Source: Escherichia phage PHB12
Sequence record: MK524178.1
Length of the DNA: 64,000 nucleotides
Direction: 5' to 3' (one strand)
The notes below the pieces were generated by a model. The model saw only the letters and a program-made list of their open reading frames with translations. It had not been told where the DNA came from and did not search any database. Of this stretch, positions 9,275 to 64,000 are shown piece by piece (position 1 is the first letter of the stretch; each line of letters opens with the position of its first letter). The position numbers and the translations under genes were made by a program.

Positions 9275-9745
9275 TTAATCATGTTTCCACACCCCATCGG
9301 TATTTGACCAAAGTCGCTGATTATCTGATCCTCGCCACAGTTTTTTGGTCGGAAAATTTTTCTCATACTTCCCATCAATAATAACATCAACATATTTAAG
9401 CATTTCTAGTTGTTTAATATCTTCAAACTTATATCCTGTCCACAACCAAATGCTTTTATTGGGATAAAGATTTTTTACTGTTTGAGCAATGCAATGAACA
9501 ACATCTCTGTTATCAGGATAGAGAGGGTCTCCTCCAGTTATAGTTAATCCTTCTATATAATCATTATTCAAACATTCAATTAATTGTTCTAGCGTTTCAT
9601 CCGTGAATGGAATACCATTTCTAGCATTCCATGTTGATTTATTATAACACCCTTCACATTTATGCAAACAACCTGTAACGAAAAGAACGACCCTGCATCC
9701 AGGGCCATTCACAAAATCGCAGGGATAAAATCTATCATAATTCAT
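9275..9745 (-). CDS. nrdG: anaerobic ribonucleotide reductase activating protein NrdG (radical SAM)
   Basis: 156 aa; CxxxCxxC cluster (CLHKCEGCYN); immediately downstream of nrdD with 4-nt overlap. Confidence 0.85.
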   Translation of the reverse strand: MNYDRFYPCDFVNGPGCRVVLFVTGCLHKCEGCYNKSTWNARNGIPFTDETLEQLIECLNNDYIEGLTITGGDPLYPDNRDVVHCIAQTVKNLYPNKSIWLWTGYKFEDIKQLEMLKYVDVIIDGKYEKNFPTKKLWRGSDNQRLWSNTDGVWKHD

Positions 9746-11559
9746 TGGTGTTTAACCCTATGCATGATTTCTTTATTTTTACCGAGATTAAATCCGCGTT
9801 CGTTCGGATTTCCAAGATAACCGCATGTTCTTCTTATGGTGTTCATCTTTTTAGGATCAGTTTCTCCACAAACTGAACAAACAAATCCGTTTTCAGTAGG
9901 AGTCATTTCATGGGTACTTCCGCATGTAAAACATTTATCTACTGGCATGTTAACACCAAAATAATCTAAATGTTGCGCAGCATAATCCCATACGGCCTCA
10001 AGTCCTTTTAAGTTATTTTTCATATCAGGAAGTTCAACATAAGAAATGTGTCCGCCGGTCGCAATGAAATGATATGGTGCTTCGCGAGAAATCTTTTCAA
10101 ACGGAGTAATATTTTCTTCTACCGAAACGTGGAAACTATTAGTGTACCAGCCTTTATCAGTAACATCTTTTACACTTCCATATTTCTCAGTATCAAGTTT
10201 ACAGAAGCGATAGCACAGGTTTTCAGCGGGTGTAGAATACAAGCTAAAAGCAAAACCAGTTCTTTCGGTCCACTGCTTAAGACGAGCATTCATTTTAGTT
10301 AAAATTTCTTGTCCAATATCACGACCGACAAGAATATTCAATTCGTGAATACCAATGTATCCTAAGGACACCGAACTTCTACCGTTTTTAAATAACTCAA
10401 TTATATCATCGTCAGGTTTCAGACGAACCCCAAATGCACCTTCTTGGTAAAGAATAGGAGCAACTGTTGCTTTAACTCCTTTTAATGAACTAATTCTACA
10501 CATCAATGCTTCAAAACACAGATCCATTCGTTCATTAAATAGCTCAACAAATTTCTGTTCATTGAATTGTGTTCCAATATAAGAATCTAACGCAATACGA
10601 GGAAGATTCAGTGTTACAACACCAAGATTATTACGTCCATCAAGAATTTCATTACCAGTCGAATCTTTCCATACACTCAAGAAACTACGACAACCCATTG
10701 GAGAAACAGGAATAGATGAACCAGTGATAGCTTTATTGTTCTTAACTGAAATAATATCAGGATACATTCTTTTGCTTGCACACTCTAGAGCAAGCTGCTT
10801 AATATCATAGTTCGGGTCGTCTTTATAAAGATTGACACCCTCTTCAACGAACATAACAAGTTTAGGGAAAATAGGAGTTATTCCATCACGACCAAGGCCT
10901 TTAATGCGGTTTTTAAGAATTGCCTTCTGAATCATTCGTTCAGTCCAATCGGTTCCCGTACCAAATGTAATTGTTACAAAAGGCGTTTGTCCGTTTGAAC
11001 TAAAGAGAGTATTTACTTCATATTCATAAGCTTGGAATGCATCGTATACGTCTTTTTCTGTTTTAGATTGGGCATAATTCAACGCATCAGCGATTTGCCA
11101 TTTTTCTGCATCCTCAATATGTTTTGCATAGGTGCGTTTAACATAAGGAGAAAGTACTTTATCTACATTCGCAAAAGTCGTTCCGCCATATTGATGGGAA
11201 GCGACCTGTGCAGTAATTTGTGCCATAATTGCAGTAGCAACACCGATCGATTTAGGCGTTTCAATTTGAGCATTACCTAGCTTAAATCCGTTCTCAAGCA
11301 TTCCTTTTAAATCTACTAAACAGCAATTAGTAAACGGAAGAGCAGGAGAATAATCAATATCATGGAAATGGATAATTCCGCTTTCATGTGCTTTCATAAT
11401 AAAAGACGGGACCATATTTTTGGCAATGTGCTTAGACACAATACCAGCCATAAGGTCCCGTTGAGTTGGAAAAACACGAGAATCTTTATTAGCATTCTCG
11501 TTCAAAAGATCTTTATTAGTTTTATGAATTAATCCTTCAATTTCTTTTTCAATTTTCAT
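9742..11559 (-). CDS. nrdD: anaerobic ribonucleoside-triphosphate reductase NrdD (class III)
   Basis: 605 aa, continuous (no intron); C-terminal glycyl-radical motif RRTCGYLG and Zn-binding CxxC...CxxC; same length as T4 NrdD. Confidence 0.9.
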   Translation of the reverse strand: MKIEKEIEGLIHKTNKDLLNENANKDSRVFPTQRDLMAGIVSKHIAKNMVPSFIMKAHESGIIHFHDIDYSPALPFTNCCLVDLKGMLENGFKLGNAQIETPKSIGVATAIMAQITAQVASHQYGGTTFANVDKVLSPYVKRTYAKHIEDAEKWQIADALNYAQSKTEKDVYDAFQAYEYEVNTLFSSNGQTPFVTITFGTGTDWTERMIQKAILKNRIKGLGRDGITPIFPKLVMFVEEGVNLYKDDPNYDIKQLALECASKRMYPDIISVKNNKAITGSSIPVSPMGCRSFLSVWKDSTGNEILDGRNNLGVVTLNLPRIALDSYIGTQFNEQKFVELFNERMDLCFEALMCRISSLKGVKATVAPILYQEGAFGVRLKPDDDIIELFKNGRSSVSLGYIGIHELNILVGRDIGQEILTKMNARLKQWTERTGFAFSLYSTPAENLCYRFCKLDTEKYGSVKDVTDKGWYTNSFHVSVEENITPFEKISREAPYHFIATGGHISYVELPDMKNNLKGLEAVWDYAAQHLDYFGVNMPVDKCFTCGSTHEMTPTENGFVCSVCGETDPKKMNTIRRTCGYLGNPNERGFNLGKNKEIMHRVKHQ

Positions 11560-26093: not shown

Positions 26094-26309
26094 TTATTGA
26101 TAAAATGGAGTTAAAGCCCAAGATTCTTTAGATACCATGTTGGCGAAATGCCTCATCTCTTCGATTTGGCGACGACGCTGGTCAGCATAGTCTTCTTCGC
26201 CTTCTTCCTTACAATCTTCAAGGTCTTCTTCAAGATACTTTAAGTATTCACTACAAATTTTGTTGACCTTTTCTTGAAAGTCCAATAACCCAGTAATAGT
26301 AGAAGCCAT
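26094..26309 (-). CDS. hypothetical protein
   Basis: 71 aa acidic ORF. Confidence 0.4.
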   Translation of the reverse strand: MASTITGLLDFQEKVNKICSEYLKYLEEDLEDCKEEGEEDYADQRRRQIEEMRHFANMVSKESWALTPFYQ

Positions 26310-26577
26310 TAGTATTTTTCCTCAGGTCGAAATACTGCACGACATGCCCACATGCTGGCTTCTTTTAGATGTTGCTTAGCATACTTAAGAGCCTGCACTG
26401 CATCCATATCTTCTTTGGTTTGTTGCTCTGATTCATTTTCTTTCAAGATATATGCTTCTTCAATCAGAGCATCAAACATCAATCCAAGACGGACTTCTGC
26501 ATCTTTAATAGCGTTCACTTTACTGATTTTATCATCGGTATGCGGCTTGTAGCCTTTGATGTCTTCAATCGACATAA
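26309..26577 (-). CDS. small protein at the T4 vs.4 (Acb2) position, tentative anti-CBASS sponge
   Basis: Track ORF trimmed to internal ATG (MSIEDIKGYKPHTDDKISKVNAIKDAEVRLGL...), 88 aa; call rests on position between regB and the GrcA-like gene and on size only. Confidence 0.35.
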
Positions 26578-26789
26578 GGAATTTCCTCATCGGTGGCAAG
26601 GTCATATTCGACCAATTGGATAGGCTCGTTAATACCATATCCACGTACAGTGATATCGGTTGTCGGATATTTTCCAGTAATATCACCCATTCTAAATGCT
26701 TCAGTGAATGATTGCTCGCCTGAGCAACTAAACCAGGCGGCAAAACATTTTAAAACATCTTCAGACCCTTCTATAATCAATTTAGCCAT
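26565..26789 (-). CDS. hypothetical protein
   Basis: 74 aa ORF. Confidence 0.4.
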   Translation of the reverse strand: MAKLIIEGSEDVLKCFAAWFSCSGEQSFTEAFRMGDITGKYPTTDITVRGYGINEPIQLVEYDLATDEEIPYVD

Positions 26790-27151
26790 TATAGACTCTC
26801 AGTAAAGGTACGAGCGATAACGTCGCGTTGCTGTTCTGGAGTCAGAGAGTTAAAGCGAACTGCATAACCGGATACACGGATGGTCAGCTGTGGATATTTT
26901 TCCGGATGCTTAACTGCATCTTCCAGAGTTTCACGACGCAGAACGTTAACGTTCAGATGTTGACCACCTTCAATTTTAACTTTAGGTTGATGTTCAATTT
27001 CAATTTCACGGGCATTCAAACCGTAGAAAATTTCCGGGTCTACAATAGCGTCTTCTTTAAAAGTCTTAGAGACGATAATCCGGGCTTGAGTACCGTCTTC
27101 AAAATAAATAGTGCCTTTATGTGCACCTTCAAGAATTTGATATGCTTTCAT
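26789..27151 (-). CDS. autonomous glycyl-radical cofactor (GrcA/YfiD-like)
   Basis: 120 aa; C-terminal glycyl radical motif [25 protein letters not shown], as in pyruvate formate-lyase C-terminus. Confidence 0.8.
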
Positions 27152-27157
27152 ATAACC

Positions 27158-27466
27158 TCAATTAGAAAATAAATTTATCCAAGATTTTTCTTTAATCAAA
27201 AATGGGTCGGAATTAAACGCCATTAAACTTTGAGTGATTAATCCCTTAAATGGCCCATCAATAAATTCCATTTTGAAATGTGGAATACTAGTCATCAACC
27301 GTGCATTAGGAGCAGTACAAAGAACGTGCTGCCCTGCGAACGGACCTTTAGTCAAACGATATCGTTTAGGTTTAAAATGGTAAATCTCGTAATTTTCTAC
27401 AAGAGCCCTTTTATTGCATACTGGGCTGTTATAACAATACTCAAAAACTTCAATAGTGGTCATCAT
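27158..27466 (-). CDS. hypothetical protein
   Basis: Track ORF trimmed to internal ATG (MMTTIEVFEY...) giving ATGA overlap with the upstream gene. Confidence 0.4.
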   Translation of the reverse strand: MMTTIEVFEYCYNSPVCNKRALVENYEIYHFKPKRYRLTKGPFAGQHVLCTAPNARLMTSIPHFKMEFIDGPFKGLITQSLMAFNSDPFLIKEKSWINLFSN

Positions 27467-28002
27467 TGCATTCCAATCACAAAAAATTGAGGACGAGCAA
27501 TACCGCCGATGCAATATTTGCTTTTGCAGCAGTGCTGTACTGATTTAATATGGACATTGTAAATCTTATCCATATCAGGAGCTTTAATAGGCTCGTCAAT
27601 TATATACAGAATACGAGAAAGCGTTAATCCACGGAATTTAGAACCTTCATTGCCAATAAAACTACGGACAGAATCAGTAAATAAACGGAATCGAATATCA
27701 TCGCTAGAATAACGAGAAAATTCTTTTTTAATGTTGCCAACAGAAATTTTAGCATAAGCTGAAGTATTAGAAAGAACAATAACTGTTCCACCGTCGTACA
27801 GCCAATTAACAGCAAAATTAGTTACTGCGGTCGATTTACCTGATTGTCTGCCGCCGTCTAAACGAAGTGTACAGTACTGCTTGAGTACGTCTTCAAATGG
27901 CGGGATATAACCATTCTTACAAATTTCTTCTACTCTAGCATCAGAATGGTGTGTAAAAGCATTCATCAGGGATAGATAAGGTCCGGTTAAAAATGTTCTC
28001 AT
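27463..28002 (-). CDS. hypothetical protein with P-loop-like motif
   Basis: 179 aa; GGRQSGKSTA resembles Walker A. Confidence 0.4.
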   Translation of the reverse strand: MRTFLTGPYLSLMNAFTHHSDARVEEICKNGYIPPFEDVLKQYCTLRLDGGRQSGKSTAVTNFAVNWLYDGGTVIVLSNTSAYAKISVGNIKKEFSRYSSDDIRFRLFTDSVRSFIGNEGSKFRGLTLSRILYIIDEPIKAPDMDKIYNVHIKSVQHCCKSKYCIGGIARPQFFVIGMQ

Positions 28003-28275: not shown

Positions 28276-28578
28276 TTATTTACCTTTAATTACTTTAGCT
28301 GCTTCGATAGCCGCTTGCTGAAGGTCGTCCATAGACATACCGAATTTAGAAGCAAAGTTATCAATTTTCTTTTCGACAGCATTCAAAGGCTTGGCCTGTT
28401 TACCTTCATTAGCGCCAGGAAGAGCGAGAATACGCTCTTTGTCAATATAAAGGCTTACAAGTTTCTTACGGTCTTTATCGGATAAATCATGAAATGAATG
28501 GGCCTTTTTATTTATAGCGGCTTCTAATTTACCTGCACTCACTCGCGCTTCAGTAATAAATTCTTGATATGTTTTCAT
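28276..28578 (-). CDS. ipI: internal protein I (IPI) precursor
   Basis: 100 aa; N-terminal capsid-targeting leader MKTYQEFITEA and body (KLEAAINKKAHSFHDLSDKDRKKLVSLYIDKERILALPGANEGKQAKPLNAVEKKIDNFASKFGMSMDDLQQAAIEAAK) closely match T4 IPI as recalled. Confidence 0.8.
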   Translation of the reverse strand: MKTYQEFITEARVSAGKLEAAINKKAHSFHDLSDKDRKKLVSLYIDKERILALPGANEGKQAKPLNAVEKKIDNFASKFGMSMDDLQQAAIEAAKVIKGK

Positions 28579-28599
28579 ATGTTTCCTTTAAATGTAAAT

Positions 28600-28617
28600 A
28601 GGCCTAAGTATCGGCCT
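28600..28617 (-). other. intergenic hairpin (AGGCC/GGCCT stem) between two internal-protein genes
   Basis: Inverted repeat AGGCCTAAGTATCGGCCT; no U-run, so more likely a processing/attenuation structure than an intrinsic terminator. Confidence 0.35.
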
Positions 28618-28619
28618 TA

Positions 28620-29198
28620 TTAATTACCACGGGCTGCATTAGCAACGGCATAAGCGTACTGAACATTAGCGTCTTTAAACGTACCTTTAGAGGTGTCTAT
28701 TTCTGCCTTAAAGCCGCCTTTAGCCATAACATCGGCAAATTCTTTACGGAAGGCCATTGCATCAAGACCCTTCCATGATGATTTATGCTTGGCAAATTCA
28801 AGACCTGCGAAGTTGACAGCTTTAGCCAATTTATTATCAATGACCCATTTACCGGCTTTAGGCACAAACTTCGGGCCTTTTTGTTTAGAGAACAGTTTTA
28901 AATTCCAGCGACGAAGATCACTGTCGGCTTTAACAAAAGCTGCGTCTAAGTTACTAGCAACAACATCTTCAATATGAGCAAATTTAAGTCCGTCAACTTC
29001 AATATTTAGATCGTTACGCCAGCGAAGTCCTTCCCAAGCGAAGGCTTTAAAATCAGAAGCTTTTGTGGCTAGATATCGTTCAAGTGGAGCAGTTTTAGGG
29101 TCGAAGCCGTTTCCACCACGATAAGTCCACTCGTCCTTATTAATGCCTTGAGCTTTTCCTGCAAAGGCCTCGGCGATAAATTCTTTATATGTTTTCAT
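28620..29198 (-). CDS. internal-protein-like protein with capsid-targeting leader (IPIII-sized)
   Basis: 192 aa; begins MKTYKEFIAEA (T4 internal-protein leader), then a basic Lys/Ala-rich body. Confidence 0.6.
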   Translation of the reverse strand: MKTYKEFIAEAFAGKAQGINKDEWTYRGGNGFDPKTAPLERYLATKASDFKAFAWEGLRWRNDLNIEVDGLKFAHIEDVVASNLDAAFVKADSDLRRWNLKLFSKQKGPKFVPKAGKWVIDNKLAKAVNFAGLEFAKHKSSWKGLDAMAFRKEFADVMAKGGFKAEIDTSKGTFKDANVQYAYAVANAARGN

Positions 29199-29228
29199 TT
29201 TTGTTTCCTTGTTTGTTTTGATAGAGTA

Positions 29229-29258
29229 ATTATACCATATTAATACTTAAGCGTAAAC
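29229..29258 (-). promoter_or_regulatory. early promoter GTTTAC-18-TATAAT
   Basis: Minus strand GTTTACGCTTAAGTATTAATATGGTATAAT upstream of the 28620..29198 gene. Confidence 0.55.
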
Positions 29259-29261
29259 TGT

Positions 29262-29522
29262 TTAAGCTTTACCGCCGGAAATAATTCCGAAGTTGTTAAA
29301 ATCGTATCCAATATCGTCGACATCTACTTTAGGGCTTGCTACAACATAAGCAATTTCACTACGTTTTGCATAGGTGTTGATTTCTTTACCATCGCCACCT
29401 AAGAAAGAATACCCATTACGTTTTAATGAGCCAAAGTCTTCCGCATCACCAATGAAAGCTTTAACTTTAAATTTGGGGTCTTTGGCATCTGCTTCAATGA
29501 TAAATTCTTGATACATTTTCAT
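29262..29522 (-). CDS. internal-protein-like protein with capsid-targeting leader
   Basis: 86 aa; begins MKMYQEFIIEA. Confidence 0.55.
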   Translation of the reverse strand: MKMYQEFIIEADAKDPKFKVKAFIGDAEDFGSLKRNGYSFLGGDGKEINTYAKRSEIAYVVASPKVDVDDIGYDFNNFGIISGGKA

Positions 29523-29530
29523 TTTTTTCC

Positions 29531-29944
29531 TTAGTAAATTGATTTACCATAGTATTTGTACCAAGTCGGACGTTGAGCAATTTTTTCATCTAAGCGTGCT
29601 TGACTTATCGCAATGGACGCTTCGGACGGGACGTAATTATTACGAAATTCTACAGGAATGTCGGAAATATCCTGGACTGTCGTGTCCTTGATTTTGAAAC
29701 CACGTTTCAAACATTCGGTGATTAGCTCGATTTGACGTAAACGTAAAAATTCGAGTTTGTCGTAAAAGAATGTTACGTGACCTGTGCCTAAGATAAATGT
29801 TGGAGAGATTTTAAAATCTTTTACACGTTTACCGTTTTGAACATGTTTACGGACTGCACCAAATACGCGTGGTAATTCACGATACTCAGCCATAAGATGT
29901 TGGTCGGTCAGTTCGGAAACGAGTGTTAAATTGATACGAGTCAT
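29531..29944 (-). CDS. denV: endonuclease V (pyrimidine dimer DNA glycosylase) DenV
   Basis: From ATG 29942-29944: [34 protein letters not shown]... near-identical to T4 DenV as recalled; 137 aa. Confidence 0.85.
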
Positions 29945-29971
29945 AATTTCCTCCAAGTAGTTGATGAATGT

Positions 29972-38349: not shown

Positions 38350-38426
<77 letters not shown>

Positions 38427-38432
38427 CGAATA

Positions 38433-38506
38433 TATGACCCAGACCAGATTCGAACTGGTAACCTTTCCCTTATGAGGGGACTGCTGCTAACCGTTGAGCT
38501 ACAGGG
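38433..38506 (-). tRNA. tRNA with CAT anticodon (Met or lysidine-type Ile)
   Basis: Hand-folded: acceptor GGCCCTG/CTGGGTC (one mismatch), anticodon loop CTCATAA, T-arm ACCAG-TTCGAAT-CTGGT; D-stem has one C-C mismatch. Confidence 0.6.
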
Positions 38507-38587
38507 CCTAAATAACTTTCTATTATGAAAGGCACTTTAGAGCACCTTTGGTAATAGAGGGTATGAATTAATAATAACACATAATTC

Positions 38588-62419: not shown

Positions 62420-64000
<1,581 letters not shown>

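Follow-up and report, generated by a model that had tools for sequence, protein, structure and literature searches.

A T4-type autonomous glycyl radical cofactor gene with a host-like radical domain in Escherichia phage PHB12

The complete coding sequence of a phage autonomous glycyl radical cofactor is located at positions 26789..27151 on the minus strand of the window, by which we mean the whole 64,000-nucleotide stretch of Escherichia phage PHB12 (MK524178.1) that was analysed. This ATG-initiated ORF encodes 120 amino acids followed by a stop codon, and its product is matched by Pfam PF01228, TIGR04365 and phrog_1209. On sequence grounds, the ORF is the ortholog of T4 vs.6 (Y06I, GRCA_BPT4) and represents the Mosigvirus (T4-like) version of GrcA/YfiD. 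[quoted passage not shown] The predicted radical site is Gly95, whose GGT codon lies at 26867..26869 on the minus strand, and which corresponds to GrcA G102 and PflB G734 in HMMER alignments to 6OWR and 1CM5/1H16. The N-terminal half (MKAYQILEG...; codons 1-60, 26972..27151, minus strand) is phage-specific as judged by alignment and GC content.

Direct reading of the minus strand reveals a Shine-Dalgarno-like GAGG at 27156..27159, located 4 nucleotides upstream of the ATG (GAGGTTATATG) and overlapping the stop codon of an upstream vs.7-like ORF (27158-27514). At the other end, the sequence and the ORF ends define a TAATG junction (26787..26791, minus strand), in which the stop codon of grcA and the ATG of a downstream vs.5-like ORF (26565-26789) overlap. 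A 114-amino-acid ORF on the plus strand (26828-27172) was considered and rejected as an antisense shadow of grcA; no evidence for it was seen.

The gene is part of a tightly packed, co-directional block. A scan for sigma-70 promoters that might serve grcA alone gave 7 sites compared to 10.0 +/- 3.4 in shuffled sequences, and neither a MotA-box middle-promoter pattern nor a late TATAAATA box was found adjoining the gene. Terminator-like matches near the gene are weak and lie inside coding sequence. We infer that grcA may be transcribed by read-through within the packed vs block. No Rfam match to a non-coding RNA was found within or opposite the gene, and the only Rfam matches in the window are two tRNAs 11 kb away. 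These tRNA genes, tRNA-Arg(tct) and tRNA-Met(cat), are found side by side at 38352-38508 on the minus strand.

Gene order is conserved around this locus. The ORF order in the window matches that of T4 and of Mosigvirus 0157tp3 across the vs.8-vs.7-vs.6-vs.5-vs.4-vs.3-regB block of Tevenvirinae, and the neighbourhood shared with T4 includes vs.8, vs.7, vs.6, vs.5, vs.4, vs.3, regB, vs.1, vs and tk.4. In the T4 reference genome, vs.6 is located at 63557-63919 and is annotated as 'autonomous glycyl radical cofactor GrcA'. Its product (UniProt P13316, GRCA_BPT4; RefSeq NP_049730) is also 120 amino acids long, aligns to the window protein without gaps at 93% identity, has exactly the same radical loop, and is grouped with it in one 90%-identity cluster. 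By alignment count there are eight amino acid differences between the two proteins, seven of which are located in the N-terminal half, the other being R73 in the window protein and H73 in that of T4. The protein called Y06I is taken to be Vs.6, because T4 has a single small Gly_radical gene and the UniProt entry is GRCA_BPT4. At the DNA level, the gene matches 783 phage records (99.4% for the best), of which 774 cover at least 80% of its length, and a 14-kb stretch that surrounds it shares approximately 97% identity with Escherichia phages AV114, AV109 and NHEP29. The region is that of a T4-like (Tevenvirinae) phage genome.

Several neighbouring ORFs exhibit features of their own. The ORF at 26309-26743 (minus strand), the second gene downstream of grcA, occupies the place of T4 vs.4, is followed by regB and carries a Pfam Acb2/Tad1 hairpin domain (E=3e-17). 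T4 Vs.4 is the anti-CBASS nucleotide sponge Acb2. As called, this 144-amino-acid ORF begins with TTG and overlaps the vs.5-like ORF; it is probably over-extended, with the true start likely to be internal. The vs.8-like ORF (27463-28002, minus strand, 179 amino acids) carries a P-loop-like GGRQSGKS motif and is weakly similar to the N-terminal ATPase region of the T4-type large terminase (PHROG 2, E=1e-6; Pfam Terminase_6N, E=0.0096, which is below the cutoff). In T4, denV directly precedes vs.8, whereas in the window (28276-29956, minus strand) three ORFs separate denV (29531-29956) from the vs.8-like gene. Two of them (28276-28578 and 28620-29198) resemble T4 ipII and ipIII, and all three carry a common N-terminus, MK(T/M)YQEFI(T/A/I)EA.

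The preliminary description, which was made from the letters alone, had assigned to the protein a C-terminal glycyl-radical motif of the kind found in pyruvate formate-lyase (PFL) and GrcA, and this assignment is borne out by four types of match. Pfam Gly_radical (PF01228) is matched with an E-value of 2e-18 and 67 bits against a cutoff of 22, wherein the match is confined to residues 60-101 and to the last 42 positions of the model. The NCBIfam spare_glycyl/GrcA model (TIGR04365) scores 159.1 bits (E=5.8e-47) over model positions 23-126, E. coli GrcA/YfiD (PDB 6OWR) aligns over residues 21-120 at E=2e-42, and PflB structures match at E=3e-26 through PflB residues 696-759. The sequence similarity to Gly_radical, GrcA and PflB is thereby far above chance.

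The comparison with E. coli GrcA that had been proposed as a check shows 100% identity between residues 61-120 and GrcA 68-127, such that the entire radical domain is the same. Identity to PflB over this domain is approximately 80%. Non-conservation of the radical glycine had been named as the observation that would speak against the assignment; the glycine is retained, since Gly95 falls opposite GrcA G102 and PflB G734 in the alignments, and the RVSGYAV loop that surrounds it is identical. Judging from its codons, the radical domain is evidently under purifying selection, with 7 synonymous and 0 non-synonymous changes relative to E. coli grcA in 60 codons.

The protein also has the architecture described for GrcA/YfiD (NCBIfam TIGR04365; InterPro IPR011140), which is that of a small stand-alone protein with a PFL-type C-terminal radical domain and no catalytic barrel. 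However, its score of 159.1 bits does not reach the curated equivalog cutoff of TIGR04365 (170 bits), because the N-terminal half is diverged and shorter. Judged strictly by this model, the phage protein would be classed as a member of a GrcA-like phage subfamily and not as an equivalog, although RefSeq names the T4 and Mosigvirus proteins GrcA despite the sub-cutoff score of the phage protein. The match to phrog_1209 is full length (1-120 of 121 positions, E=9e-63), and by this profile the protein belongs unambiguously to the T4 Vs.6/Y06I subfamily.

The gene is thus a known, characterised and annotated phage auxiliary metabolic gene, and its re-identification brings no new biology. The exact protein sequence is already public under Mosigvirus, where it is labelled 'autonomous glycyl radical cofactor'. 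Elsewhere, public labels for the gene vary and include 'hypothetical protein', 'pyruvate formate-lyase', 'putative acetyltransferase-like protein', 'ribonucleotide reductase subunit' and 'glycine radical', and PHROGs v4 lists phrog_1209 as being of unknown function. Such inconsistent labels for a characterised gene give the present identification some relevance for annotation.

There is published biochemistry for two proteins of this type. According to the account of Wagner et al. 2001 (Knappe and co-workers; BBRC 285:456) that is given in PMC8683613, E. coli YfiD and T4 Y06I are spare-part proteins of approximately 14 kDa that are radicalised by the PFL activating enzyme, and that form a complex with O2-cleaved PFL and restore its activity. 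These are the only two validated spare-part proteins (PMC8683613, J Biol Chem 2021). Residues 61-127 of YfiD form a structured domain that takes the place of PFL 693-759, and residues 1-60 are disordered and yet promote both binding to cleaved PFL and installation of the radical (PMC8683613). Activation by the PFL activating enzyme and rescue of PFL are reported for the T4 ortholog, and by analogy the window protein would be expected to behave in the same manner. We also infer that the phage N-terminal half may perform the same binding job as YfiD 1-60, although partner recognition could differ, given that only 19 of 60 residues in this half are common with GrcA.

We favour the explanation that phage GrcA restores O2-cleaved host PFL during infection, and we assign to it a probability of roughly 0.85. 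In E. coli cells infected under anaerobic or microaerobic conditions, the host radical-SAM enzyme PflA would abstract a hydrogen from Gly95. When O2 cleaves host PflB at its radical glycine G734, the phage protein would dock into the truncated enzyme, and its C-terminal 60 residues would substitute for the lost strand-loop-helix such that the Gly-to-Cys radical relay is restored. Conversion of pyruvate to acetyl-CoA and formate could then go on, with ATP supplied via acetate kinase while the phage replicates, presumably to the benefit of the phage in vivo. The idea of a spare radical domain that had been advanced for this locus therefore agrees with the published interpretation, and it is supported by the 93% amino acid identity and the synteny with T4 Y06I, the protein reported to rescue O2-cleaved PFL.

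It is not obvious why the phage would need a copy, as the host has its own grcA. The shut-off of host gene expression in T4-type infection is a plausible reason. The searchable literature yielded no report of an in-vivo phenotype for a phage vs.6 mutant. The gene raises the question of why a lytic phage carries its own copy of a host repair part, and of what relevance this might have in the anaerobic or microaerobic gut.

One other possibility is a modulator or decoy role instead of repair. As a mimic of the host radical domain, the protein might titrate PflA or occupy PflB, with the N-terminal half serving to redirect or throttle fermentation; otherwise, it might activate intact, non-radical PflB. 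Such a role would accommodate the phage-specific nature of the N-terminal half (19 of 60 residues common with GrcA), since in YfiD this is the half that governs binding and activation. However, T4 Y06I is reported, in the account cited above, to reconstitute active PFL rather than to inhibit it, and the perfect conservation of the catalytic radical domain, with its 0 non-synonymous changes, fits a working cofactor. We therefore consider this role improbable.

The composition of the gene itself is that of a chimera. In the window phage, the 3' 180 nucleotides (26792-26971) are 96.1% identical in DNA sequence to E. coli grcA, the corresponding value for T4 is 98.3%, and within codons 61-118 T4 and E. 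coli grcA differ at one base. Over the same 180 nucleotides, E. coli grcA is 92.8% identical to that of Citrobacter amalonaticus, 83.9% to that of Salmonella and 84-87% to that of Klebsiella. Because the phage 3' half is closer to E. coli grcA than any of these, it is of Escherichia origin and younger than the Citrobacter, Salmonella and Klebsiella splits. The identity to the host begins abruptly at codon 60/61 and stops at the stop codon, with no downstream homology. The breakpoint is located a few residues inside the structured half, wherein the YfiD domain boundary is at 60/61 and the identical tract starts from GrcA residue 68.

The 5' half differs in each of these respects. Its GC content is 0.356, compared to 0.472 for the 3' half and 0.37 for the window, and the 19 of 60 aligned residues (about 30%) that its product has in common with bacterial GrcA contrast with the complete identity of the radical domain. 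This N-terminal half is common to T4 and to the T4-like phages of Klebsiella. Among sites that encode the same amino acid as the host gene, the host codon is used at 11 of 19 in the 5' half and at 53 of 60 in the 3' half of the window gene (Fisher p=0.006), and at 8 of 18 and 57 of 59, respectively, in T4 (p=2e-6). There is also a directional bias among the changes in the 3' half relative to E. coli, since 6 of 7 in the window and 3 of 3 in T4 are from GC to AT. This bias is as expected for host DNA that is drifting towards phage composition.

The T4-like phages of Klebsiella provide a useful comparison. They carry the same N-terminal half (MKAYQILEG...), whereas their 3' halves encode TLLDAVEH where that of E. 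coli encodes TLEDAVKH. In an alignment that includes two Klebsiella-phage copies, TLLDAVEH is also found in Klebsiella, Raoultella and Salmonella genes, and the best DNA matches to the Klebsiella-phage 3' halves are to Raoultella and Klebsiella at 83-86%. The simplest reading of these observations is that an old phage gene had its radical domain replaced by homologous recombination with host grcA, once at least and perhaps repeatedly.

A more far-reaching version of this reading is that the chimera is maintained, such that an old, phage-specific N-terminal 'adaptor' stays fused to a radical domain whose sequence is overwritten at intervals from the grcA gene of the current host. If true, recombination would keep the radical module matched to host PflA and PflB, and the adaptor half may confer a target preference or timing other than that of host GrcA. 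Alternatively, the ancestor from which the E. coli phages descend may have imported the segment a single time, with subsequent amelioration. We put forward periodic overwriting only tentatively, as a possibility that at present we would not expect to hold. A host-derived and possibly host-tracking 3' half is the only mildly new element at this locus, and it is a candidate that raises the question of ongoing recombination from host to phage.

The same data could be taken to mean that the gene is a neutral passenger, a recently captured piece of host grcA that has no function for the phage, given that the 3' 180 nucleotides match E. coli grcA at 96-98% identity and resemble the host in GC content. 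We regard this as very improbable, because the gene has its full length, is well placed and possesses both a Shine-Dalgarno sequence and translational coupling, and because its synteny is kept from T4 to the T4-like phages of Klebsiella and Aeromonas, with homologs in 1,588 phage records. Within the radical domain, only synonymous changes distinguish the gene from that of the host, and the T4 protein is described as biochemically active in the account of Wagner et al. 2001 contained in PMC8683613. Frequent frameshifts or losses among close relatives were not seen, with 774 of 783 DNA matches covering at least 80% of the gene.

A further alternative is that the protein provides a replacement radical domain for the class III NrdD of the phage itself, which is likewise cleaved by O2 at its glycyl radical, and that it is activated by phage NrdG. 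Both genes were identified in the window by Pfam matches and are located on the minus strand, nrdD at 9742-11559 and nrdG at 9275-9745. The window nrdD is one uninterrupted 605-amino-acid ORF that overlaps nrdG by 4 nucleotides, whereas the T4 reference nrdD is split by a group I intron carrying I-TevII, with the homing endonuclease gene mobC located between nrdD and nrdG. The window phage lacks both the I-TevII intron and mobC at this locus.

The preliminary description had placed the radical-domain gene near this class III ribonucleotide reductase, which is accurate inasmuch as the window also contains nrdD and nrdG, on the strand that carries grcA. However, they are 15.2 kb away, with 14 ORFs of at least 150 amino acids in between and more if smaller genes are counted, and this amounts to co-occurrence without adjacency. 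The equivalent distance in T4 is approximately 17 kb. The functional or positional link that had been drawn between these genes is not supported, given this gap and a NrdD loop, RRTCGYLGNPN, that is unrelated to the PFL-type loop.

A role in the repair of NrdD would draw on the presence of nrdD and nrdG in the same genome and window, on the finding that NrdD homologs are present in every sampled phage group with a GrcA-like gene, and on a 2006 comparative paper (Virol J 2006, PMC1524935) in which a role in nucleotide metabolism was speculated from the Pfam match alone. Nevertheless, BLASTP of the protein against the window NrdD gave nothing significant (E=2.6, and away from the radical loop). 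The C-terminus of NrdD reads CSVCGETDPKKMNTIRRTCGYLGNPNERGF and includes a Cys-rich site, and the grcA protein has neither the RxCGYxG loop of NrdD-type domains nor similarity to the NrdD C-terminus. Its radical domain is instead identical to that of host GrcA and approximately 80% identical to that of PflB. Linkage is also wanting elsewhere, since the grcA-like gene of the T5-like phage Bf23 is located among tRNA genes and no anaerobic reductase gene was found within 20 kb of it, and about 2,925 phage records contain NrdD, compared to the 1,588 that have GrcA-like genes. With no similarity to the phage NrdD C-terminus and no linkage, we reject this role as barely credible. The absence of any resemblance to the phage NrdD radical loop argues that phage GrcA would serve host PFL rather than the phage reductase. 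Plausibly, grcA and nrdD/nrdG reflect the same lifestyle, in which facultative anaerobes are infected at low O2, without forming a unit.

GrcA-like homologs are found in 1,588 phage records, which include T4-like, T5-like and Aeromonas phages as well as Erwinia jumbo phages. Two further occurrences were encountered outside of phage records. There is a grcA copy on the 275 kb plasmid unnamed4 of Klebsiella sp. WOUb02, and a 410-bp contig labelled Enterococcus faecalis encodes a 60-amino-acid fragment of the phage type, which is most likely contamination by a T4-like phage.

Among the copies that were fetched, the proteins of T5-like phages (Demerecviridae), Krischvirus, Aeromonas phages and Erwinia jumbo phages are 120-138 amino acids in length and carry the same C-terminal domain as the window protein. 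However, they are only 51-67% identical to it and are found in other genomic contexts, and none of the sampled host genes is nearly identical to their radical domains. The C-terminal domain of PflB (PDB 1H16/2PFL, residues 696-759) is the same strand-loop-helix module with the same loop, but the phage protein corresponds to only the last ~64 residues' worth of this 759-amino-acid enzyme, and possesses neither the barrel nor Cys418/419. E. coli GrcA/YfiD (P68066; PDB 6OWR) is likewise a stand-alone radical domain wherein an N-terminal half, disordered in YfiD, is followed by the structured domain. Compared to E. coli GrcA, the phage protein is seven residues shorter and its N-terminal half is AT-rich and diverged, and whereas E. 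coli grcA is located next to ung, the phage copy resides in an early-region gene block.
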